Positions 6,064 through 60,260 of a stretch of 64,000 bases of DNA are shown piece by piece. The DNA is from an uncultured Acidobacteriaceae bacterium (GTDB lineage: Bacteria; Acidobacteriota; Terriglobia; Acidiferrales; UBA7541). The notes beneath the pieces are model-generated. The model had not been told where the DNA came from, did no database searches, and saw nothing but the letters and a program-made list of their open reading frames with translations. Position numbers and translations under genes: made by a program. The first letter of the stretch is position 1. The number at the start of each line of letters is the position of its first letter. The stretch is taken from contig CAZCNH010000007.1 in assembly GCA_964500065.1 (NCBI GenBank), positions 1-64,000 of the forward strand, written 5' to 3'.

Positions 6064-7350
6064 CTAGGAGGAAGAAGGAGCGGCAGCGGCAAGCTTGCGG
6101 CGGATGCGAAGGCGGAGCACCTTGCGTTGATTGGCTTCGAGCACCTCAAAGCGGTGTCCCACAAGTTCCATCGATTCCCCAGGAGCGGGCACGTGCCCGG
6201 CAATCGCGTTGAGCAGGCCGGCGATGGTGGCCGCACCATCCTTCCCCTGCGTCTCCAAGTCCACCCCCAGCAGTTCCTTCACCTTTTCCAGGGAGACGCT
6301 GCCGCGCAACAGCAGTGCGCCATCGGCTTCGCGCACGACTTCGGGAACCGGCGAGCGGTCTTCCTCGTGTATCTCGCCGACAATTTCTTCGACCAGATCT
6401 TCGGCGGTCACGACGCCGGCTACCGACCCGTACTCATCAATCACCACCGCCATTTGCTGGCGCTTCTGCTGCATTTCTTTGAGCAGTTGCGAGCCCATCT
6501 TGGTCTCCGGCACAAACAAGGCCGGGCGCACCAGTTCCTCCACCCTGCGAGTGCGGGCATCGTTCTCGGAAATCTGCAGCAGGTCGCGGGCATACACAAT
6601 GCCGCGGGTTTCGTCGAGATTTTCCTCGTACACCGGCAAGCGGGAGAACTTCGTTTCCACGATGACCCGCCGCAGTTGCTCGAGGGTGGCATCGGCCGGA
6701 ATGGCCACCACTTCCGGGCGCGGCGTCATCATGTCGCGCACTCGCTTATCGGCAAATTCCACCACTTGCTCGATCCATTTCGCTTCGTCTTTTTCCAGTA
6801 TGCCCTGCTCCTCGGCGGCTTCCACCAGGGCTTCCAGTCCTTCTTGCTGCTTTTGCTCCGCATCGTCCGGCACTTCCCCCAGCCGGGTCACCGAGATAGC
6901 CACCTCGGTGAGGGCTCGAACCGGCCACGCCATCCAACTGAACAGCTTCACCACCGGCAAAAAAGCGATCAGCCAGCGGCCACTGGTTCGAGAGATCAGC
7001 AGGTAAGGAAGGAAATGCATGCAGACTGAAATCTGCGCGGCCAGGATCACAATATGCTGCAAGAGCGATTCCCACGTGCCGGGAGTGAAGAAAGTGACCC
7101 CGCGGGTGGTTTGCACGGCGACCAGCACCAGCCAGCCATGCGCCAGCAAGGAAAACGTCAGCGCGGCCCGACGCCGTTCGAGACCCAGGCGCGGCTCGAC
7201 TTCAGCCTCGAAAATATCCAGGTTGGCGTGAATCCTGCCGGTCGTCACCCGGCCCAACTCGCGGTACACGCGGTCCACATAGGCGAACAGGACCAGCCCG
7301 CCGAGAGTAAGAAAGACCGAGAACGTATAAAAGGTGAAGATCCATCTCAT
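6064..7350 (-). CDS. HlyC/CorC family transporter (CNNM/DUF21 membrane domain + CBS pair + CorC_HlyC domain)
   Basis: N-terminal TM helices, two CBS domains, C-terminal transporter-associated domain. Sits in the conserved phoH-ybeY-ybeX(corC) neighbourhood. The start overlaps the ybeY stop. Confidence 0.85.
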   Translation of the reverse strand: MRWIFTFYTFSVFLTLGGLVLFAYVDRVYRELGRVTTGRIHANLDIFEAEVEPRLGLERRRAALTFSLLAHGWLVLVAVQTTRGVTFFTPGTWESLLQHIVILAAQISVCMHFLPYLLISRTSGRWLIAFLPVVKLFSWMAWPVRALTEVAISVTRLGEVPDDAEQKQQEGLEALVEAAEEQGILEKDEAKWIEQVVEFADKRVRDMMTPRPEVVAIPADATLEQLRRVIVETKFSRLPVYEENLDETRGIVYARDLLQISENDARTRRVEELVRPALFVPETKMGSQLLKEMQQKRQQMAVVIDEYGSVAGVVTAEDLVEEIVGEIHEEDRSPVPEVVREADGALLLRGSVSLEKVKELLGVDLETQGKDGAATIAGLLNAIAGHVPAPGESMELVGHRFEVLEANQRKVLRLRIRRKLAAAAPSSS

Positions 7351-13030: not shown

Positions 13031-14411
13031 TCAGGCAGTCAATTGAGCGACGAGAAATTCAAGCACGGCGCGGTGATCCGCGGCGCCGCCCTTCAATTGC
13101 GAATCCGCGTCGTAGAGAGCGGTCAGTCCGGCCAGGAGCCGCTCGCGCGGCATTTTTTGAGCGGCGCGCAACGCCAGTTCTGCGGTATCGGGCTTCATCT
13201 TCAGCAGGCCTGCCGCGGCAAATCGGTTCAAGCCGCGCGGCGCGCCATTGGCTTCAATCAGCTTGCGGTACATCCAGGCCAGCCCGCCAATCAGCCCCGC
13301 GGGCTGCTCGCCTTCGCGCAGAATGCGGTCAATAAATTCGAAGGCCTGCCCCGGCTTTCGTTCCGCCAGCATATCCGCCAGTTGCCAAACGGAGGATTTC
13401 TGATCCGCCACCACCAGTAATTCCACTTCGCGCGCAGTGATTCTTTTTCCCGGTCCCACGTAAGTCGATAGTTTTTCCAGTTCAGTCCGGACCCGCGCCA
13501 GTTCCCCGTTGCAGGCTTCGGCCAAGTCCGCAGCGGCGCCGGTTTCGATGACCGCGCCTGCCTCCCTGGCGATTTCCGGGATCATGCTCTGGCAGGCTTC
13601 GATAGCCGCTTTGCGTTTTTCGTCGCCCTTGCCCTCCGCCAGTTCTACGCTGACCAGTAGCGTCTGGCTGAAAAGCAGCTTGAAGAGCTTTGTGCGCTGG
13701 TCCAGTGACGCCGCTTCCAGCACCAGCACCGTGAAGGGCGCCGGGGCTTCCAGGTACGCGGCCAACTGCTTTTCGGTTTCTTCCCGGCCCCACGTAAGTC
13801 GATAGTTTTTCCAGTTCAGTCCGGACCCGCGCCAGTTCCCCGTTGCAGGCTTCGGCCAAGTCCGCAGCGGCGCCGGTTTCGATGACCGCGCCTGCCTCCC
13901 TGGCGATTTCCGGGATCATGCTCTGGCAGGCTTCGATAGCCGCTTTGCGTTTTTCGTCGCCCTTGCCCTCCGCCAGTTCTACGCTGACCAGTAGCGTCTG
14001 GCTGAAAAGCAGCTTGAAGAGCTTTGTGCGCTGGTCCAGTGACGCCGCTTCCAGCACCAGCACCGTGAAGGGCGCCGGGGCTTCCAGGTACGCGGCCAAC
14101 TGCTTTTCGGTTTCTTCCCGCTTTTCGTCACCCAGCCGGGCCAGCGCCTCCACCCCGGAGAGAATAATGACCTGCAGCGGCGAGAGCATGGGCAGGGTCT
14201 GCGCCCGCTGCAGCGCTGGCTCCAGAGAGATGTCCTCGAGCGAAAGCCGCGTGACCGCCCAGGCGCGCGCCGGCGGCGGCACATAGGCATCAATCAGTTT
14301 GTTGCGGCACAATTCGCGCAGGTAGAGATCTTCCCCGAGCAACACAACCGCCGGGACAGGCTGGCGCTTCGCCAGTTTGGCCAAGAATTGCTCGACGTTG
14401 CTGGACGCCAC
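13031..14411 (-). pseudogene. holA: DNA polymerase III delta subunit (holA), split into two ORFs (13482..14411 and 13031..13765) by a 334-bp tandem duplication that shifts the frame
   Basis: N-terminal ORF has the delta-subunit N-domain (VVLLGEDLYLRE...). The same 105-aa stretch (AYLEAPAPFTVLVLEAAS...TELEKLSTYVGPG) is encoded twice. Removing one 334-bp copy restores a ~348-aa HolA. GTG start overlaps the lptE stop (TAGTG). Conserved lptE-holA order. Confidence 0.75.
13457..14124. repeat. perfect direct tandem duplication, 2 x 334 bp (one mismatch at the junction), inside holA
   Basis: Identical +-strand shadow ORFs 13509..13805 and 13843..14286; identical peptide stretch in both minus-strand ORFs; junction at microhomology ttcccgg. 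Confidence 0.9.
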
Positions 14412-29312: not shown

Positions 29313-30563
29313 TTACGCGCCTTGTGCGACTGCGCGTAGTGCCGCTAGGAATCGTTCCACTTCTTCCGCCGTGTTGTAATGCACGAGGCCGATGCGCAGG
29401 AAGCCGCCGGATGATTCGATACCCAGGCGTTCGGTGAGGTTCAATGCGTAGTAATTGCCATCCCAGGTGAAGAAGCCACGGTCGCCCAGCCGACGCGCGA
29501 GTTCGGTGGGGTGATGGTCGCCAATGCGTACGCCGAAGGTGGGCACGCGCTGTTCAAGCCGCGCTTCGTCGGAGATCCCGTACAGCTTCAATCCGGGAAT
29601 GGCCAGCAGCCCGCGCAGCATTTGCAGGGAAAGCTCCTGCTCATAAACATGGATCGCGCGGTGCGCAGCCAGAATCGCAGCGCGGCGAGATGCGACGGCG
29701 GGGTCCGCCTGCCGGCCCAAATCCGCAATGTAATCCACCGCGGCTTCGATGCCCGCGAGCAGCTCGTGGCACAGCGTGCCGGTTTCCCAGCGGTCCGGCA
29801 CATTATCGGATGCGGGCCTGACCTTGTATGGCCGGAACCGCGCCAAATGCTCGCGCTTGCCATAGAGCGCGCCGGAATGCGGGCCAAAGAACTTGTAGGG
29901 CGAACACGCCAGAAAATCACAGTCAAGCGCGCGCACGTCAATCGGTCCGTGCGGCGCATAGTGTACGGCATCAAGGAAGGCCAGCGCGCCCACGTTGTGC
30001 GCCAGCCGTACAACTTCGTTCACATCATTGATCGTGCCCACCGCATTTGCGGCATATCCAACCGCGACCACCCGGGTGTTGGAGTTGATCTTCAACCGCA
30101 GGTCATCCATGTCCAGCGTGCAGTTTTCGGGGTGAATATCCACTTGACGGATAATCACGCCGCGCTCTTCCAGCGCGCGCCACGGGGCCACGTTGGCATC
30201 GTGATCGAGCGTGGTAACTACAACCTCATCGCCGGGACCGAGAGTGCGGCCGATCGAGCGCGCCAAGCCCAGCGTGAGCGTGGTCATGCTCGGCCCAAAG
30301 ACAATTTCCGTCGCGTCACAGCCCAGGAAGTCGGCCATGGCGCCGCGCGCGGAGAGGATCAGCGCATCGGTGCGCCGGCTGGTATCGAACATCCCGCCGG
30401 TGTTGGCGTTGGAGCGAGTGTAGTAGTCGCTGACGGCGTCAATGACTCGCTGCGGCACCTGCGTCCCGCCGGGGCCGTCCAGGTAGACAGCAGGCGCTCC
30501 TGCCACCTTTAGATCGAGTGCCGGGAACTGTCTGCGAGCATAATTCAGATCGAATTTGGTCAT
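29313..30563 (-). CDS. class-V aminotransferase / cysteine desulfurase family protein (SufS/CsdA-like)
   Basis: PLP-fold class V; C-terminal HYNTAEEVERFL typical of the cysteine desulfurase/selenocysteine lyase group; 416 aa. Confidence 0.75.
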   Translation of the reverse strand: MTKFDLNYARRQFPALDLKVAGAPAVYLDGPGGTQVPQRVIDAVSDYYTRSNANTGGMFDTSRRTDALILSARGAMADFLGCDATEIVFGPSMTTLTLGLARSIGRTLGPGDEVVVTTLDHDANVAPWRALEERGVIIRQVDIHPENCTLDMDDLRLKINSNTRVVAVGYAANAVGTINDVNEVVRLAHNVGALAFLDAVHYAPHGPIDVRALDCDFLACSPYKFFGPHSGALYGKREHLARFRPYKVRPASDNVPDRWETGTLCHELLAGIEAAVDYIADLGRQADPAVASRRAAILAAHRAIHVYEQELSLQMLRGLLAIPGLKLYGISDEARLEQRVPTFGVRIGDHHPTELARRLGDRGFFTWDGNYYALNLTERLGIESSGGFLRIGLVHYNTAEEVERFLAALRAVAQGA

Positions 30564-30588
30564 TGGGGTCTCTAGCGTGTATGCCGCT

Positions 30589-30718
30589 CTTCCGTCATTC
30601 TAAGACCGCCGGAGGCGGACGAAGAATCTCGATGTTCAATGTTGCGGAAGACTTGTGACCGAGATTCTTCGGCCAAAACCGGGCCTCAGAATGACGAAGT
30701 GACTTCTTCCGCAGCCTG
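30589..30718. repeat. ~130-bp nested-palindromic intergenic element, copy 1 (sits in the 5' leader region of the sufS-like gene)
   Basis: About 80% identical to 58240..58371. Outer stem GTCATTCTaAG/CTCAGAATGAC, inner stem CGAAGAATCTCG/CGAGATTCTTCG, direct repeat of GACGAAG. Confidence 0.8.
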
Positions 30719-31783
30719 TCAGGTCTCCACTGCTTCAACAAAGTCCGACAGCAGCCCATACGCGGTAGCGATCACGCCGGGCTTGTGCTCGATGATGGAG
30801 AGGCCGAACACGTCCATATCAAAAAACAACGCTGACGTGGTCCCGGTCAGTTGCGCAAGCGGGTCACTCAGCGGCAATTGCTCGGGAGCCACACGAGCGC
30901 GAATCGCGCTGCCATCGCGGCGGGCGCTGCACACAAGTTTGTACGGCTTGCCGGAGGCGCGTGCTTCACGCGCCGCTTCCCTCGACAAGGTCGCAATGCC
31001 AACCCGCTCGACCTCGCCCGGCCGCAACGACGCGCCCATCAACACATTGCACAGCGCGCAGATTTTTACCGCCGGGTCCCAGCCCTCCAGATCGTCACTG
31101 GGATCAGTTTCCGCAACGCCAATTTCCTGCGCGCGGCGCACCGCATCGGCAAAAGTTCGGCCGGCCTCCATTTCCGTGAGCACCACGTTGCTGGTCGAGT
31201 TCAATAAGCCGCGGAACCCGCGCAGATTCACCACCGGCAGCGTGTGGCGAAACAGATTGAAGACCGGCGTGCCATCCATCACCGACGACTCGAAGAGAAA
31301 CCGTTTGCCAGCCTTCTCCGCAAGAGCATGCAATGCGTCTAACGCGTAAACCACCGGCCCCTTGTTGGCGCTAATGGCGTGCGCGCCATGCTCCAGCGCT
31401 GCCTGTAAGTGTTCGATGGCCGGCTGCCCCGTATGGCGGTTGAGGGACGACATTTCCATCAGCGCGTCCGCCTGTGCGGCGCGCAACCACTCACGCACAT
31501 TTGCGAATTGCCGCGGCATGACGCCGCTTTTGTGCCACGTCGAAGGCTCGCCGGGCGACGCAAGCAGCGCCGCCGGATCGAACCCATCAGGATGCGCGTT
31601 CCACCCCAGGCGCCGCGAAGCCATTCCGGTGATGCGCCAATCAATGCCATGTTGCTGGCGCAGGGCTTCGCGCTTGCTCATAAGCAAACGCACCAGTTCG
31701 CGGCCCACGTTGCCAAAGCCAACCAATGCCAGGTTGTAGGTCTTCGCGCTCACGTTGTGAACCCGGAATATTATCACGCCCAC
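30719..31783 (-). CDS. hom: homoserine dehydrogenase (short form without an ACT domain)
   Basis: NAD-binding LALVGFGNVGRELVRLL; homoserine dehydrogenase catalytic-domain motifs. Confidence 0.8.
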   Translation of the reverse strand: MGVIIFRVHNVSAKTYNLALVGFGNVGRELVRLLMSKREALRQQHGIDWRITGMASRRLGWNAHPDGFDPAALLASPGEPSTWHKSGVMPRQFANVREWLRAAQADALMEMSSLNRHTGQPAIEHLQAALEHGAHAISANKGPVVYALDALHALAEKAGKRFLFESSVMDGTPVFNLFRHTLPVVNLRGFRGLLNSTSNVVLTEMEAGRTFADAVRRAQEIGVAETDPSDDLEGWDPAVKICALCNVLMGASLRPGEVERVGIATLSREAAREARASGKPYKLVCSARRDGSAIRARVAPEQLPLSDPLAQLTGTTSALFFDMDVFGLSIIEHKPGVIATAYGLLSDFVEAVET

Positions 31784-35565: not shown

Positions 35566-35641
35566 GCGCCCTTAGCTCAATGGATAGAGCGTCTGGCTAC
35601 GAACCAGAAGGCTGGGGGTTCGAGTCCCTCAGGGCGCGCCA
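35566..35641 (+). tRNA. tRNA-Arg (anticodon ACG)
   Basis: Folds by hand into a cloverleaf: acceptor GCGCCCT/AGGGCGC, D-arm GCTC-AATGGATA-GAGC, anticodon arm TCTGG-CTACGAA-CCAGA (ACG), T-arm GGGGG-TTCGAGT-CCCTC, discriminator G, encoded CCA. Confidence 0.9.
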
Positions 35642-35656
35642 CTTCATTGCCCCAGA

Positions 35657-35911
35657 ATGTTCCACGTTTATGTCCTTCGCAGCACTGTCACCGGTCGGCA
35701 CTATGTCGGCCACACTTCCGACGTTACCCAACGAGTCGGTCAGCACAATCGAGGAATTACGAAGTCAACCAGGAACCGTGGCCCATGGGAACTGGTTCAC
35801 CATGAGTCGTACGAGACCAAACGTGAAGCCACTCGACGGGAGAGGTTCCTGAAAACCGGCAAGGGCCGCGAAGAATTGAAGGCCATACTTAACGCGAAGC
35901 TTGCACCATAG
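35657..35911 (+). CDS. small stand-alone GIY-YIG nuclease-domain protein (YhbQ/UPF0213-like), copy 1
   Basis: MFHVYVLRS...GRHYVGHTSDVTQRVGQHNRG...ESYETKREATRRERFLK matches GIY...YIG...R...E...N spacing. 84 aa; starts 16 nt after the tRNA. Confidence 0.8.
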   Translation: MFHVYVLRSTVTGRHYVGHTSDVTQRVGQHNRGITKSTRNRGPWELVHHESYETKREATRRERFLKTGKGREELKAILNAKLAP

Positions 35912-35979
35912 CTGTTGGATAGAGTCCGCCTGCGGCGGAAACCAGAAGGCTGGGGGTTCGAGTCCCTCAGGGCGCGCCA
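35912..35979 (+). pseudogene. tRNA-Arg-derived fragment: D-arm-like segment, GC hairpin TCCGCCTGCGGCGGA in place of the anticodon arm, then intact T-arm/acceptor 3' strand with CCA
   Basis: GCTGTTGGATAGAG-TCCGCCTGCGGCGGA-AACCAGAAGGCTGGGGGTTCGAGTCCCTCAGGGCGCGCCA aligns to the intact tRNA except for the 5' acceptor strand and the anticodon arm. Confidence 0.7.
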
Positions 35980-35994
35980 CTTCATTGCCCCAGA

Positions 35995-36249
35995 ATGTTC
36001 CACGTTTATGTCCTTCGCAGCACTGTCACCGGTCGGCACTATGTCGGCCACACTTCCGACGTTACCCAACGAGTCGGTCAGCACAATCGAGGAATTACGA
36101 AGTCAACCAGGAACCGTGGCCCATGGGAACTGGTTCACCATGAGTCGTACGAGACCAAACGTGAAGCCACTCGACGGGAGAGGTTCCTGAAAACCGGCAA
36201 GGGCCGCGAAGAATTGAAGGCCATACTTAACGCGAAGCTTGCGCCATAG
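35995..36249 (+). CDS. small stand-alone GIY-YIG nuclease-domain protein, copy 2 (identical protein; one synonymous difference)
   Basis: Same 84-aa sequence as 35657..35911; single gca->gcg difference at the last Ala codon. Confidence 0.8.
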   Translation: MFHVYVLRSTVTGRHYVGHTSDVTQRVGQHNRGITKSTRNRGPWELVHHESYETKREATRRERFLKTGKGREELKAILNAKLAP

Positions 36250-36325
36250 CTGTTGGATAGAGTCCGCCTGCGGCGGAAACCAGAAGGCTGGGGGTTCTCC
36301 GCCGCGGCGGACTCAGGGCGCGCCA
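36250..36325 (+). pseudogene. second tRNA-Arg-derived fragment; the T-loop is additionally disrupted by GC hairpin TCCGCCGCGGCGGA
   Basis: Same as fragment 35912..35979 up to GGGGGTTC, then TCCGCCGCGGCGGA replaces GAGTCC, then CTCAGGGCGCGCCA. Confidence 0.65.
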
Positions 36326-36341
36326 CTTCAACCCACTCCCC

Positions 36342-56464: not shown

Positions 56465-58204
56465 TCAGTAGCCGATGGCTGCGCCATCGCCATCGCGCGG
56501 GTCGGAAGCGCCAGTGCGAATGCCGGTCTTTGGCTCGACCAAAATACCCATGGCGCGCCCTTGCGAGCGGGTGCTGTCGGATATGCGTACCTTGTGTCCA
56601 TAGCTTTCCAGCAGCTTCAGTACTTCCGGCGCGGCGCCGTGCTTTTCGATGTTGATGCGGTCGGGCAGCCATTGATGGTGAATGCGCGGGGCGCCCACCG
56701 CTTCCGCCACGTCCATTTTGAAGTCGAGCACGTTCACCACAACTTGCAGCACAGTATTGATGATGGTGCGGCCGCCGGGCGAGCCGATCAGCAAATAAGG
56801 TTTGTCCTCGTGGACGATGATGGCCGGTGTCATCGAAGAAAGCATGCGCTTGCCCGGCGCGACCACGTTGGGCGGCGTGCCAATCAACCCGGTTTCGTCT
56901 GTGCGGCCGGGCTGCGGATTGAAGTCCCCCATCTCGTTGTTCAGCAGGAACCCAGTTCCCTCCGCAACAATGTGCGAGCCATACCAGCCTTCCAGGGTAA
57001 AGGTCACCACCACCGCATTTCCGTCTTTGTCTATCACCGAATAGTGCGTCGTATGGTCGGATTCCCCGCGCTCCCGATTGAATGCAGCGGGGTCGCTGAC
57101 CGAGGCGCGCGATTCCTGGATACCACGCCGCAAGGTTGCCGCGTGTTCCTTCGAGGTAAGCCGCGCGACTGTTGCCCCCATGTCCGGGTTGAACTCAGGG
57201 TCGCCCATATATTGGGCGCGATCGGCAAAAGCCCGGCGCATCGTTTCGGCCAGCAAATGCAAATGTCGTGCCGAGCCATATCCCGCCCCCGCCAAGTCGT
57301 AACCTTCGAGGATGTTCAGCATTTCAATCAGCGCCGTGCCACCGGAACTCACCGGGGGCATGCCGATCACCTGGTAGCCGCGGTAGGTCCCTTGCAGCGG
57401 CCTGCGTTCCTTCGCTTCGTACGCGGCCAAATCAGCTTCGGTGATCAGCCCGCCGTTGCGCCTCATGTCCGCGGCAAGAAGCCGGGCGGTTTCCCCTTTA
57501 TAGAAGCCGTCACGCCCGCGTTGTTGAATGCGCTTCAGAGACTTGGCCAGATCCTTCTGCCGCCAGATCTCCCCTTGTTGATAGGGTTCTCCGTCCGGTT
57601 TCAGGAAAATTCGCGCGGTTGCCGGATAGCGGCGGAAGTTTTCCGCGTTGCGGCGGAAGTCGTCGGACATGGTCCAGGTCATCGGGATGCCTCGGTCCGC
57701 CAGCCGAATCGCCGGCGCGATCAACTGTTTCATCGGCATCCTGCCCAGTTTGGAGTGAGCCAGGAAAAATCCGGCCACAGTGCCCGGCACGCCGGGAGAC
57801 TTCCATCCCTCATGATTCGACTTTCCGTCGTACACGCCCTGCGCGTTCAAATACATTTTGTCGCTGGCGGCGGCAGGCGCCTTCTCGCGAAAATCGAATG
57901 CGCGAGTTTCGCCGCTGGCCAGGCGCACCAGCATGAAGCCGCCGCCGCCGATGTTCCCGGCGCCCGGCAGCGTCACCGCCAGGGCAAACCCGGTGGCAAT
58001 CGCCGCGTCCACGGCATTGCCGCCTTTTTTCAGGATATCCACGCCGACCTGCGACGCCAGATAATGCGAGGAAACCACCATGCCGCTGCGTGCCCGTACC
58101 GGATGCGCGGCGACCGCAAGGGTCACTGGCGGAGGAATCATCAGCGTGACGCAAAGGGCGGCAGCCAGCAGCCCACACATCACCCGTTTGGAAAAATCGC
58201 GCAT
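56465..58204 (-). CDS. ggt: gamma-glutamyltransferase
   Basis: GGT family throughout; autoprocessing/catalytic Thr in DTTHYSVIDKDGNAV; signal peptide; AGGAGG RBS before ATG 58204. Confidence 0.9.
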   Translation of the reverse strand: MRDFSKRVMCGLLAAALCVTLMIPPPVTLAVAAHPVRARSGMVVSSHYLASQVGVDILKKGGNAVDAAIATGFALAVTLPGAGNIGGGGFMLVRLASGETRAFDFREKAPAAASDKMYLNAQGVYDGKSNHEGWKSPGVPGTVAGFFLAHSKLGRMPMKQLIAPAIRLADRGIPMTWTMSDDFRRNAENFRRYPATARIFLKPDGEPYQQGEIWRQKDLAKSLKRIQQRGRDGFYKGETARLLAADMRRNGGLITEADLAAYEAKERRPLQGTYRGYQVIGMPPVSSGGTALIEMLNILEGYDLAGAGYGSARHLHLLAETMRRAFADRAQYMGDPEFNPDMGATVARLTSKEHAATLRRGIQESRASVSDPAAFNRERGESDHTTHYSVIDKDGNAVVVTFTLEGWYGSHIVAEGTGFLLNNEMGDFNPQPGRTDETGLIGTPPNVVAPGKRMLSSMTPAIIVHEDKPYLLIGSPGGRTIINTVLQVVVNVLDFKMDVAEAVGAPRIHHQWLPDRINIEKHGAAPEVLKLLESYGHKVRISDSTRSQGRAMGILVEPKTGIRTGASDPRDGDGAAIGY

Positions 58205-58239
58205 GACGAAACCTCCTGACAAGCTGCGAAAAAAAAGCA

Positions 58240-58371
58240 CTTCCCCGTCATTCTGAGTCTGCCGAAGGCGGACGAAGAACCTCGACGTTCATTATCGCCA
58301 AGGACTTGGGATCGAGATTCTTCGGCCGCTTCGCGGCCTCAGCATGACGAAGTGACTTTTTCCGCATCCTG
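58240..58371. repeat. ~130-bp nested-palindromic intergenic element, copy 2 (sits in the 5' leader region of ggt)
   Basis: About 80% identical to 30589..30718; same position and orientation relative to the downstream minus-strand gene. Confidence 0.8.
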
Positions 58372-58448
58372 CTAAGCAACCAAACCTGCTGCAATCATTT
58401 CATGCTCAAGCTGACCCGGCGACCCCAGAGTGCGCGCGCCTGCCAGGA

Positions 58449-60260
58449 CTACGCGGCCACTCGCCTGGAGATGTCGCGGTAAAGCAGTGTACCGGTGACT
58501 CCCGCCAGCGCCCAAAGTCCGGCGCCGAGTCCGGGTTCGCCGAGCAGCAATTTGCCCGTGCCGAACAGCGCGGAATAGACCATGGCGCAACCGAGCAGCC
58601 AGGCGGTAAGGTTGGCGCCCAAATCTCGCGTTGGCGCAAGGTCCGGGGCCAGGACCGCGATGGGCTTCCACCCGCTCACGTGGGGCCGCGCGTGACGGTA
58701 AAAATCCAGCAGCTTTTGTTGTGGTTCGGGTTTGGTAAGAAACGTAACGAGTACCCAAACGACCGTGGTCACCAGCGTGGTGGTGAGCGCCGTCTTGGCA
58801 AAGACGACCGAAGAACTGCCCGCAAACGCATCGCTACCCGCAAATTTCTTCCAGTTTTGAATCACCTGGCTGACCACCAGCGAAGTGGCCATCGCAGAAA
58901 TTTCACTCCACGCGTTGATGCGCCACCAGAACCAGCGCAGGATATAGACCGCGCCCGTGCCCGCGCCGATTACCAGCACATTTTCCCAGCCGGAGGCGAT
59001 GCTCGTCAGCAGCCACGAAACCAACCCCGAAGCCACAACCAGCAGCGGCGTGACGGCGAAACGCGACACGTTCACGTAGTGCGCTTCGTCCGCCTCGCGC
59101 TTCACAAAGCGCCGGTAAAAGTCACCCACGATGTAGGACGCGCCCCAGTTGAGTTGCGTGGCAATCGTGGACATGAACGCCGCCAAAAAGCCCGCAACCA
59201 AGATACCGAGAAAGGCGGGCGGCAGATGTTCGGTGGCCAGCCGAATGTAGGAAGCTTCTGCGTCAGACCTCGACAACCCTGGATACAGCACCATGCAAGC
59301 CAGTGCCGTGAAAATCCACGGCCACGGGCGCACCGCATAGTGCGCAATGTTGAACCACAAAACGCTGAGCAGGCCATCGCGCTCGCTGCGCGTCGAGAAA
59401 ATCCGCTGCGCAATGTAGCCGCCGCCGCCCGGCTCCGCGCCCGGATACCAGAAGGCCCACCACTGCACCGCAAGATGAACAATGAAGGTGAGGGCAGGCA
59501 GCGTCCACAAAAGCTCGGAAGAAAATCCGGCGCCAAAATCAGGCAAAAACGCGGTGGGGTCGCCCTGGGTGACGGCGGTGGCGCCCCGCAATTCCTGCAG
59601 GCGGTGCAGCATGGTCTCCATGCCTCCGGCTGCGCCTACGGCGTACCAGCCCACCGCGATCACGATACTCATCATCAGCACGAACTGGAAAAGATCGGTC
59701 CACAGCACGCCCCACAGCCCGCCCAGCGATGCGTAAATGCCGGTAAACGGAATGAGGAAAAAAATGCAAATCCCCAGGGCCGTTGCGTCGGAGACGCCCA
59801 GAGTAATCTTGATGATGCTGGCCATGGCTTTGGTGACCCAGCCCAGGATCAGGCAGTTCATCAGCAAGCCCAGATAAATTGCCCGGAATCCGCGCAGGAA
59901 CGCGGCCGGTTTGCCGGCGTAACGCATTTCCGCGAATTGCACATCGGTGAGCAGGCCGCTGCGCCGCCACAGCCGCGCAAACAAAAACACCGTCATCATC
60001 CCCGACGGCAAAAAACTCCACCACAACCAGTTGCCGGCAATTCCGCTGAAGTAGACGATGCCGGTGACCGCCAGCGGAGTATCCGCGGCAAATGTGGTGG
60101 CCACCATCGAGGTGCCCGCCAGCCACCAGGAAACGCTGCGTCCGCTGACGAAGTAATCCGCGGTGCTGGCGCTGGCTCGCCGCCGGAAATACAAGCCAAT
60201 CAGCATCGAGGCCAGCAGGTACCCGCCAATGGCAAACCAGTCAAGCAAGGTGAGTTTCAT
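58449..60260 (-). CDS. sodium:solute symporter (SSS) family transporter
   Basis: About 13 TM helices; SSS family N-terminal pattern LLDWFAIGGYLLASMLIGLYF...DYFVSGR. Confidence 0.85.
   Translation of the reverse strand: MKLTLLDWFAIGGYLLASMLIGLYFRRRASASTADYFVSGRSVSWWLAGTSMVATTFAADTPLAVTGIVYFSGIAGNWLWWSFLPSGMMTVFLFARLWRRSGLLTDVQFAEMRYAGKPAAFLRGFRAIYLGLLMNCLILGWVTKAMASIIKITLGVSDATALGICIFFLIPFTGIYASLGGLWGVLWTDLFQFVLMMSIVIAVGWYAVGAAGGMETMLHRLQELRGATAVTQGDPTAFLPDFGAGFSSELLWTLPALTFIVHLAVQWWAFWYPGAEPGGGGYIAQRIFSTRSERDGLLSVLWFNIAHYAVRPWPWIFTALACMVLYPGLSRSDAEASYIRLATEHLPPAFLGILVAGFLAAFMSTIATQLNWGASYIVGDFYRRFVKREADEAHYVNVSRFAVTPLLVVASGLVSWLLTSIASGWENVLVIGAGTGAVYILRWFWWRINAWSEISAMATSLVVSQVIQNWKKFAGSDAFAGSSSVVFAKTALTTTLVTTVVWVLVTFLTKPEPQQKLLDFYRHARPHVSGWKPIAVLAPDLAPTRDLGANLTAWLLGCAMVYSALFGTGKLLLGEPGLGAGLWALAGVTGTLLYRDISRRVAA

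Follow-up and report, generated by a model that had tools for sequence, protein, structure and literature searches.

Two CGTC-type hairpin-dimer repeats beside sulfur-related genes of an uncultured Acidobacteriaceae bacterium and their probable relation to a nuclease-carrying element

Position and anatomy of the two repeats

We analysed a stretch of 64,000 nucleotides from an uncultured Acidobacteriaceae bacterium (contig CAZCNH010000007.1 of assembly GCA_964500065.1, positions 1 to 64,000 of the forward strand; hereafter the window), in which a nested palindrome of about 130 bp is present twice in the same orientation. An original prediction, made from the letters alone, had placed both copies in the 5' leaders of two genes of sulfur/thiol metabolism, and had offered as candidates either a repeat like the repetitive extragenic palindromic (REP) sequences and the miniature inverted-repeat transposable elements (MITEs), or a cis-regulatory RNA shared by the two genes. 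Each copy is a dimer of inverted hairpin units (A and B) around a spacer that lacks an open reading frame (ORF), and the features of the two loci are as follows, with fold energies given for single-stranded DNA (ssDNA).

29313..30563, minus strand: class-V aminotransferase/cysteine-desulfurase-like gene, downstream of copy 1 (PF00266; 100% identical to database protein P0001)
30593..30631, plus strand: copy 1 unit A, with CGTC, ATTCT arm, AAGA/ACGA internal loop, CCGCC-GGA-GGCGG apical hairpin, AGAAT arm and CTCG tail (sequence, arm matches)
30632..30659, no strand: copy 1 spacer between the inverted units, the position of the GIY-YIG gene in the relatives L148 and L238 (sequence)
30660..30696, minus strand: copy 1 unit B, CGTC ATTCT GA G GCC-CGGTTTT-GGC C GA AGAAT CTCG (ssDNA fold -6.3 kcal/mol)
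30697..30718, plus strand: copy 1 right flank, GAAGTG stem extension and outer inverted-repeat arm CTTCTTCCGCAGCCTG, ending at the stop codon 30719-30721 (sequence, nhmmer)
30719..31783, minus strand: homoserine-dehydrogenase-like (hom-like) gene, whose stop touches copy 1 (orthologues carry PF00742)
56465..58204, minus strand: gamma-glutamyltransferase gene (ggt), downstream of copy 2 (PF01019; P0121 100% identical)
58220..58245, plus strand: copy 2 left outer arm CAAGCTGCGAAAAAAAA and stem extension GCACTTC, adjoining the ggt Shine-Dalgarno sequence (CCTCC, 58212-58216)
58246..58284, plus strand: copy 2 unit A, CGTC ATTCT GAGT CTGCC-GAA-GGCGG ACGA AGAAC CTCG (ssDNA fold -6.7 kcal/mol)
58285..58312, no strand: copy 2 spacer (sequence)
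58313..58349, minus strand: copy 2 unit B, CGTC ATGCT GA G GCCGC-GAA-GCGGC C GA AGAAT CTCG (ssDNA fold -8.5 kcal/mol)
58350..58371, plus strand: copy 2 right stem extension AAGTGAC and outer arm TTTTTCCGCATCCTG (sequence, profile)
58449..60260, minus strand: sodium:solute symporter gene, upstream of copy 2 (orthologues carry PF00474)

The predicted palindrome was borne out at both places. A repeat search of the window returned a two-member direct repeat family (30592-30718 and 58245-58371) that is 82% identical over 127 nt, and when copies 1 and 2 were aligned with MAFFT the identity fell off at either edge. Both stems are present in both copies, the outer one formed by GTCATTCT(A/G)AG and CTCAG(A/C)ATGAC and the inner one by CGAAGAA(T/C)CTCG and CGAGATTCTTCG. 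The 11-mer arm, with at most one mismatch, occurs six times in the window against 0.77 expected, and four of the six are the four arms themselves; a third copy or a solo unit was absent from the window when it was searched with a profile of the acidobacterial subfamily and with relaxed unit patterns. The RNA folds of the copy regions reach -50 to -58 kcal/mol (z -1.9 to -4.4) on either strand, and the ssDNA fold of copy 2 reaches -38 kcal/mol on both strands (z about -6.7).

The distances to the start codons also agree with those predicted: copy 1 lies 26-30 nt from the aminotransferase ATG at 30563, and about 40 nt separate the core of copy 2 from the ggt ATG at 58204, a start that is supported by P0121. 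Each copy sits between two minus-strand genes, and hence also downstream of a gene. Copy 1 occupies the 155-nt gap between the hom-like ORF and the aminotransferase gene and is abutted by the stop codon of the former (TCA, 30719-30721), and copy 2 is located 77 nt past the stop of the symporter ORF. Since there is a gene on both sides, the copies are equally 3' trailers and 5' leaders; the leader placement holds for the aminotransferase gene and ggt, and is incomplete in that both copies follow an upstream stop codon as well.

All units share one architecture: a (C/T)GTC tag, an ATTCT arm, GA, a GC-rich apical stem with a GAA-type triloop (consensus apical hairpin GCGAAGC), GA, an AGAAT arm and a C-initial tail. 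The four window units read CGTC-AT(T/G)CT-...-AGAA(T/C)-CTCG, and in ssDNA folds with DNA parameters (-6.3 to -8.5 kcal/mol) they form a 5-bp ATTCT/AGAAT stem (4 bp in copy 2 unit A), a GA/GA loop and a GC-rich apical hairpin; in copy 1 unit A these are a 5-bp stem, a 2x2 loop and an apical stem with triloop, at -8.2 kcal/mol. The unit bodies measure 29-31 nt and the apical stems 3-6 bp (mostly 5-6), closed by a triloop except in copy 1 unit B, which has a 7-nt loop. In the dimer the two inverted units point their tags outward (head-to-head) across a spacer of 28 nt in both window copies, and with units inverted and tags outside, the outer and inner stems arise automatically. The duplicated GACGAAG motif of the original prediction finds its place here too, one occurrence being the 3' arm of the first unit and the other the terminal GACG (the complement of CGTC) tag of the second.

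Copy 2 exceeds the length first reported for it, as an outer inverted repeat CAAGCTGCGAAAAAAAA (58220-58236) mirrors TTTTTCCGCATCCTG (58357-58371), and the profile of the acidobacterial subfamily aligns with it over 58218-58373. For copy 1 the nhmmer alignment spans 30580-30720 and leaves model positions 1-16 unaligned, the left outer arm being missing or degenerate. A further inverted repeat (CAGGCTGCGGAAAA...) surrounds the dimer in the acidobacterial lineage, and in the acidobacterial/deltaproteobacterial subfamily the dimer lies within ACAGGCTGCGGAAAAAC...GTTTTTCCGCAGCCTGT, often with GC-rich palindromic flanks as well. In many acidobacterial copies (L183/L217, L190, L195/L220, L200, L226 and L072), moreover, brackets of the form GGCGGGGCT(T/A)NA ... 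TNAAGCCCCGCC lie beyond the outer repeat; such copies reflect either a longer element still or an insertion preference for existing GC-rich palindromes, as Di Nocera et al. (PMC3733652) describe for some REP families.

Orthologous gaps, family and gene context

We found the element missing from the corresponding gaps of the closest relatives. The four closest loci with PfkB, homoserine-dehydrogenase and aminotransferase genes in the same order (L166-L169, 84-86% protein identity) have the gap without it, and in L167 the hom and aminotransferase genes overlap by 14 nt and leave no spacer, so that a very stable hairpin separates in the window two genes that overlap in this relative. Among the ggt loci, L172 (88% identity) has an empty gap of 63 nt, L170 (87%) has a different repeat, and L171 is rearranged. 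Neither gene, therefore, has the element as a conserved leader. Its absence at orthologous sites points to insertion in the lineage of the window, the alternative being loss in the relatives.

Other repeats were seen in the same gaps. An unrelated palindromic repeat (GGAACCACAGATGAACACAGATAAACAC ... GTGTTCATCTGTGGTT) lies at the same spot in L166 (880-960), L168 (2640-2680) and L169 (3860-3990) and appears to belong to another acidobacterial REP-like family, and the symporter-ggt gap of L170 (2760-2950) holds a third palindromic repeat (CTGGAGTGCGGTAGCTCGCTACCGC ... GCGGTAGCAAACTACCGCACTCCACAG). The hom-aminotransferase and symporter-ggt gaps are thus sites where palindromic repeats accumulate.

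Relatives of the element were collected by exact-pattern scans of viral contigs (45 stretches, about 30 of them true relatives) and of species-representative genomes (at least 120 stretches); collecting by pattern forces the arms to be conserved, and arm conservation is thus partly a sampling effect. A fuzzy parse of the collected loci gave at least 175 elements, 126 of which could be assigned to a strand. Among the matches listed there are at least 13 phylum-level groups as well as IMG/VR phage contigs, the groups by record title being Acidobacteriota, Chloroflexota, Planctomycetota, Bacillota, Bacteroidota, Pseudomonadota, 'Deltaproteobacteria'/Desulfobacterota, Spirochaetota, Melainabacteria, Armatimonadota, Poribacteria, Latescibacteria, Bdellovibrionota and Binatota. 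The family consensus reads T-GTCATTCTGAG / GA-GCGAAGC-GA / CGAAGAATCTCG ... spacer ... CGAGATTCTTCG / CTTCG (or a hairpin of its own) / CTCAGAATGAC-A. Of the 126 oriented copies, 108 carry TGTC and 10 carry CGTC as the outward tag, the tail after AGAAT is C-initial (CTC in 75 of 126, then CCC, CTA and others), and the distance from unit to unit has a median of 31.5 nt (range 18-72).

Covariation was measured through anchor-based parsing. The apical hairpin takes 62 distinct sequences whose terminal stems average 2.81 in length versus 0.59 after shuffling, the inner stem is extended by 56 distinct complementary pairs, and the tails of a dimer pair with one another. Such stem covariation is expected of a hairpin recognised as ssDNA, and it gives no sign of a riboswitch.

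The gene context of the 126 oriented copies was derived with a crude ORF caller based on amino-acid composition, which recovers all four genes flanking the window copies. In co-directional gaps the element is antisense in 28 cases and sense in 27, so its orientation is random (p=1); a further 26 copies lie in convergent gaps, 14 in divergent gaps and 9 of 126 within a called ORF. Compared with the background gaps of the same loci (369 co-directional, 78 convergent, 89 divergent), convergent gaps are enriched (odds ratio 2.2, p=0.004). For the subfamily of the window, a metagenome scan returned 55 stretches that represent 33 distinct sites, all from peat or bog samples, with orientations of 6 same, 5 opposite, 3 convergent and 2 divergent. 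The genes beside these 33 sites match 74 Pfam families once each (ResB, ribosomal L1/L11, FliF, formyltransferase, ROK and MFS among them), and sulfur-metabolism families are not enriched. The copy survey that had been proposed thus found many copies in both orientations, in keeping with a REP/MITE-like repeat, and did not find them confined to sulfur genes.

An all-against-all BLAST clustering of about 1000 ORFs from 165 loci showed no recurrent neighbouring transposase; what clustered were generic families and the structural genes of phages on related viral contigs. A gene of the M24 family (Xaa-Pro aminopeptidase-like, judged by eye) recurs in five loci of different phyla (L047, L063, L120, L143 and L158), probably by chance: it adjoins the element in three of the five loci only (downstream in L047 and L063, upstream in L143), and side and distance are inconsistent. 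On the related IMG/VR phage contigs L006, L011, L021, L026, L031, L034 and L042, one to three copies each lie between capsid, portal and terminase genes, some of them in tandem or with extra half-units; the collected stretches of these seven contigs contain no GIY-YIG gene. A full-text literature search with the arm sequences returned PCR primers and vector sequences only.

Known hairpin repeats and the GIY-YIG nuclease

Previous studies described CGTC REPs as units with a terminal CGTC (or TGTC/CCTC), an A-T stem start, an 8-9 bp stem, a 4-5 nt loop and a 3-nt tail (consensus CCA), which mostly form head-to-head dimers with 20-100 bp spacers, lie mainly downstream of genes and sometimes inside larger palindromes (PMC3733652). 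They were reported from five host phyla, include dRS3 of Neisseria and RPE-4/RPE-6 of Rickettsia (PMC3733652; BMC Genomics 14:522), and have no dedicated transposase, no tyrosine transposase having been found between them (PMC3733652). The window copies agree with this description in many respects: all four units begin with CGTC; the stem starts with A-T (ATTCT/AGAAT arms, with ATGCT in one unit and AGAAC in another); the dimers are head-to-head with a spacer in the same range (28 nt), extragenic and often past stop codons; a larger palindrome occasionally encloses them; no adjacent transposase was seen among the ORFs of 165 loci; and the short tail is C-initial. The likeness extends to CGTC-1, whose intragenic peptide VIPAKAGI (PMC3733652) back-translates to GTCATTCCCGCGAAAGCGGGAATC: the family core GCGAA(A)GC aligns with it, and GTCATTCCCGCGAAAGCGGGAATC and GTCATTCTGAGCGAAGCGAAGAATC differ by G.A for C-G pairs. 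The REP/MITE-like candidate of the original prediction can accordingly be specified as CGTC-tagged REP hairpins that form a head-to-head dimer and are related to the motifs of Ssn nucleases.

The differences are equally clear. Where CGTC REPs have C-G pairs beside ATTC, the present family has tandem G.A (ATTCT-GA...GA-AGAAT); their bodies measure 20-23 nt, whereas the window units have 29-31 nt with a GC-rich apical stem and triloop; their tail is CCA and here it is mostly CTC; and the present hosts (Acidobacteriota, Chloroflexota, Bacillota, Planctomycetota and others) fall outside the five listed phyla. The short unit of the family, ATTCTGAG-CGAAG-CGAAGAAT, fits CGTC REPs in size (8+5+8), yet has 6 Watson-Crick pairs plus tandem G.A.

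A second known system is that of the Neisseria NTS (CGTCATTCCCGCGMAVGCGGGAATCYRG) and SsnA, a single-domain GIY-YIG nuclease of 94 aa that binds this hairpin, and cuts beside it, exclusively in ssDNA (PMC11893778). Cleavage depends on the bases just 5' of the palindrome and binding on the C just 3' of it (PMC11893778; Nat Commun 16:2388), and bacterial ssn genes are typically flanked by the motif in a layout like that of an insertion sequence (IS), NTS-ssnA-NTS (PMC11893778). Here too GTC stands directly 5' and C directly 3' of the hairpin, in the window and family-wide, and inverted copies flank a GIY-YIG gene of about 94 aa in L148 and L238, the spacers of the window copies being without an ORF. 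In contrast to the published system, the main text of PMC11893778 is silent on Chloroflexi and Acidobacteria, and ORF-less dimers and a deletion intermediate are documented here.

GIY-YIG genes were searched by motif scan and jackhmmer over all collected DNA, and ORFs were found in L148, in L155 and twice in the window, all of them encoding proteins with PF01541 only. In L148, a Dehalococcoidia chromosome, unit A is followed after 10 nt by a 94-aa GIY-YIG ORF and then by unit B (GAATTCTTCG...CTCAGAATGACA), so that the gene takes up the spacer, and at least four ORF-less copies stand in tandem after this nuclease element. In the region 6100-6970 (minus strand) the ORF-less elements make up a complex tandem array of full dimers interspersed with repeats of the right half (spacer and unit B), so local amplification of units is possible besides dispersal. 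The L148 protein has 7,944 database relatives at E<=1e-10; among the best 120 of these, 16 end in LDSSLRSE*, which results when unit B is translated up to the TGA in GAATGAC, and 4 start with VILRSEATKN, which is encoded by unit A.

L238 has the same DNA layout as L148 (unit A, GIY-YIG ORF, unit B). Directly after its full element lies a second copy (1516-1720) with an internally deleted ORF, in which about 17 N-terminal codons (HTYYVHFLTNETHSLYM) are joined to about 25 C-terminal ones (EPESPMWIDLSAEWSEALDSSLRSE*), and such a copy is the intermediate expected between autonomous and ORF-less forms. When viral contigs were searched with the nuclease alignment, 45 strong relatives were found, with xGTCATx at most 160 nt upstream in 27 and on both sides in 20; sister variants beside these viral nucleases include GTCATTGCGAG...GAAGCAATC. 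Among these relatives, in L270-L276, GIY-YIG genes flanked by exact Neisseria-type NTS hairpins are homologous to the L148/L238-type nuclease (tblastn E 1e-16 to 9e-20), and in L239 a short unit upstream of the GIY-YIG gene has a second copy on the same strand downstream. The L155 protein carries Y6, Y17 and E64 at positions mutated in SsnA, the nucleases measure 93-94 aa with PF01541 as the sole domain, and a PDB sequence search with the nuclease gave no match.

The window has GIY-YIG genes of its own.

35657-35911 and 35995-36249, plus strand: two identical 84-aa single-domain GIY-YIG ORFs in a 338-bp tandem repeat beside tRNA-Arg (PF01541, E 1.9e-15)

They possibly are related to the element; they belong to the same superfamily as the internal nuclease of its relatives, but to another subfamily. 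Within the region 35566-36330, the tRNA-Arg(ACG) gene (35566-35641) is followed by two 100% identical tandem units of 338 bp, each of which carries a GIY-YIG ORF and an incomplete copy of the tRNA that has a TCCGCC-TGC-GGCGGA hairpin in place of the anticodon arm (CGTCTGGCTACG...). After these comes a third tRNA-like end, which is degenerate and contains TCCGCCGCGGCGGA in its T-arm. The 338-bp unit looks like a minimal GIY-YIG cassette that targets a tRNA gene, although its tandem copy could be an assembly artefact. In addition, a CCGCC-NNN-GGCGGA hairpin occurs at 30606-30619, 35925-35939 and 36263-36277 (5 strand matches versus 0.38 expected), that is, in the apical stem of copy 1 unit A and after each GIY-YIG ORF, copy 2 having CTGCC-GAA-GGCGGA; it may tie the window nuclease to the element or be a coincidence among GC-rich hairpins. 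A 334-bp tandem duplication (99% identical) was also seen at 13444-14077 inside a minus-strand gene that resembles DNA polymerase III delta (holA), as judged from its translation; the ORFs 13482-14411 and 13031-13765 share about 110 identical residues, and as the 334-bp period is not a multiple of 3, the duplicated gene is frame-shifted. Together, the 334-bp and 338-bp duplications suggest an assembly artefact or population heterogeneity.

Weighing of the explanations and their meaning

That the window copies might act as a leader RNA or riboswitch in the 5' untranslated regions (UTRs) of two cysteine/glutathione genes, responding to a sulfur-related signal, is an idea suggested by their common orientation 26-40 nt before the start codons, by the strong RNA hairpins of the transcribed strand (-58.5 and -56.8 kcal/mol) and by two of the three stem mismatches being G-U pairs on that strand. 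The idea did not survive the comparison with the family. Folding is as strong on one strand as on the other; the orthologous gaps at 84-88% protein identity do not contain the element; its orientation is random (28:27); 26 of 95 copies lie between convergent genes, where there is no 5' UTR at all; and its neighbours are functionally unrelated and include the structural-gene clusters of phages. The Rfam comparison, which had been proposed as a check, brought no match either: with the gathering thresholds of Rfam 15 the window gave tRNA only, and at E<=10 the region 30500-30800 gave two chance-level matches. We consider a shared regulatory RNA extremely improbable. (A hammerhead-like reading of CUGAGGAG...CGACGAAG was rejected too, as there is a C at the GAA core position and the Rfam hammerhead models were unmatched.) A role chosen by the host, as a bidirectional terminator or a stabiliser of mRNA 3' ends kept for operon expression, would account for the enrichment in convergent gaps (odds ratio 2.2, p=0.004), for the stop codon that precedes each window copy, for the T8 of copy 2 (58229-58236), one base past the extended stem on the transcribed strand, and for the A5...T5 around the hairpin in the composite consensus. 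Yet a terminator scan detected no canonical terminator at either copy, copy 1 is without a U-tract, close relatives do without the element and even overlap the genes (L167), and termination needs no arm conservation across phyla; a promoter scan likewise detected no canonical promoter at either copy. As the reason for the existence of the element this role is rather unlikely, and as a secondary effect it may be compatible with a mobile origin.

Among mobile origins, a classical REPIN (a REP doublet forming a hairpin) mobilised by a REP-associated tyrosine transposase (RAYT, of the IS200/IS605 Y1 type) shares the general design, i.e. inverted, extragenic, multi-copy hairpins recognised as ssDNA, and class 3 Y1 enzymes with atypical hairpins occur in Acidobacteria (PMC6006769). 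In these REPINs and in the bacterial interspersed mosaic elements (BIMEs), which are built of GTAG REPs, inverted REP doublets fold into one long hairpin and are non-autonomous, with an enzyme presumed to act in trans on ssDNA hairpins, just as we suppose here. Unlike them, the present family has a CGTC/TGTC foot and GIY-YIG in place of a GTAG tag (GT[AG]G) and an HUH-Y1 tyrosine transposase, and it does not have the CnGA foot of class 3 either; RAYT REPs are usually species-specific, whereas the arms here are conserved across phyla. About 1000 ORFs from 165 loci yielded no transposase-like protein that recurs, a result obtained with no Y1-specific profile search, Di Nocera et al. found no tyrosine transposase between CGTC REPs (PMC3733652), and the gene found between units is a GIY-YIG nuclease, which makes mobilisation by RAYT very unlikely. 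A MITE of a DDE transposase that recognises the outer repeats (CAGGCTGCGGAAAAAC...GTTTTTCCGCAGCCTG), with the CGTC dimer as passenger or earlier insertion, could explain why these repeats are kept in the 33 peat acidobacterial sites, in window copy 2 and in several genome loci, and why CTAG or TNA stands at either end of some copies, e.g. L125. We tried CTAG and TNA as IS5/IS630-like target duplications and rejected them, because the flanking tri- and tetranucleotides are inconsistent as duplications and are often part of a longer palindrome; moreover, the outer repeat is absent from most members of other phyla and from the left of copy 1, and no transposase with such ends was seen. Structured MITEs such as the Correia elements of Neisseria and the ERIC/IRU (enterobacterial repetitive intergenic consensus/intergenic repeat unit) sequences resemble the window copies in length (about 100-160 bp), in terminal inverted repeats, and in being intergenic, co-transcribed and able to alter mRNA stability or termination, but they have defined target-site duplications and a DDE origin, while no such duplication was found for the present repeats, whose full-length relatives have a GIY-YIG nuclease gene inside. 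We hold a DDE origin to be unlikely.

We favour instead, at a probability of roughly 80%, the reading that the window copies are non-autonomous, ORF-less, REPIN/MITE-like dimers of CGTC-type hairpins derived from a nuclease-carrying element. Their identity as such hairpin dimers, their wide distribution and their lack of gene specificity are direct observations. The series of full-length, deleted and empty forms strongly suggests that they descend from a nuclease-carrying unit, and mobilisation in trans by an Ssn-type nuclease is what we infer. In this scheme the nuclease-carrying element would have lost its gene and given rise to ORF-less copies like those of the window. An Ssn-type nuclease working in trans on hairpins that extrude from ssDNA would have spread these copies or would still process them. 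Their landing beside two sulfur-related genes would be due to chance. Any effect on hom/aminotransferase or symporter/ggt expression would be a by-product of a transcript hairpin of -57 to -58 kcal/mol (protection of mRNA 3' ends, partial termination or uncoupling) and not a metabolite-responsive control.

Several points weigh against this explanation. To our knowledge, transposition by a GIY-YIG nuclease has never been demonstrated. Of the 227 non-window loci only 2 carry a GIY-YIG gene, so that a nearby nuclease gene is lacking for most copies; this is expected if the nuclease acts in trans, but is no proof of it. The 64-kb window is without an Ssn gene of the L148 type; its own GIY-YIG proteins belong to a different subfamily, with 35% identity to the L148 protein, and no CGTC-tagged unit or match to the search string for Ssn-related motifs (SRM) was seen beside their genes. 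That string, HGTCWYN(0-2)YYVSBRHN(0-5)WNVSBRGN(0-2)RNCYNB (PMC11893778), matches the NTS control when used as a regular expression, but none of the four window units or of two consensus units, and it has 0 matches in the window. The 8-9 bp stem and 4-5 nt loop of classical CGTC REPs are not reproduced by the window units either. A target-site duplication or an exact insertion junction could not be defined, as the flanks of filled and empty sites are too diverged. Finally, the evidence of Chenal et al. is for cleavage and for an effect on transformation and does not extend to mobility (PMC11893778).

Further, we put forward as a tentative and still doubtful extension that the whole family (GTCATTCTGAG...CTCAGAATGAC) is the gene-less miniature of a tiny mobile element whose sole gene, for a 94-aa GIY-YIG single-strand nuclease, would lie between two inverted hairpins, with the Ssn nuclease as its transposase, distributed over more than 12 phyla and phages, and that the window copies are recent insertions of it.

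The case carries a caution: strongly folding, duplicated leaders before related-looking genes can be selfish repeats, and gene callers may turn such repeats into spurious small ORFs. It also extends the CGTC REPs and Ssn motifs past the five listed phyla, to Acidobacteriota, Chloroflexota, Bacillota, Planctomycetota and phage contigs, and shows that the published search motif overlooks a large variant with tandem G.A for C-G pairs. The full-length unit, the internally deleted copy and the ORF-less dimers correspond to the three stages that an IS-to-MITE series built on a GIY-YIG nuclease would be expected to show, and this series bears on how CGTC REPs, which have no dedicated transposase, multiply. 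Cognate pairs of nuclease and hairpin could widen the set of site-specific ssDNA nucleases proposed as tools. If the extended proposal is true, a GIY-YIG-based IS/MITE system would have spread through more than 12 bacterial phyla and into phages.

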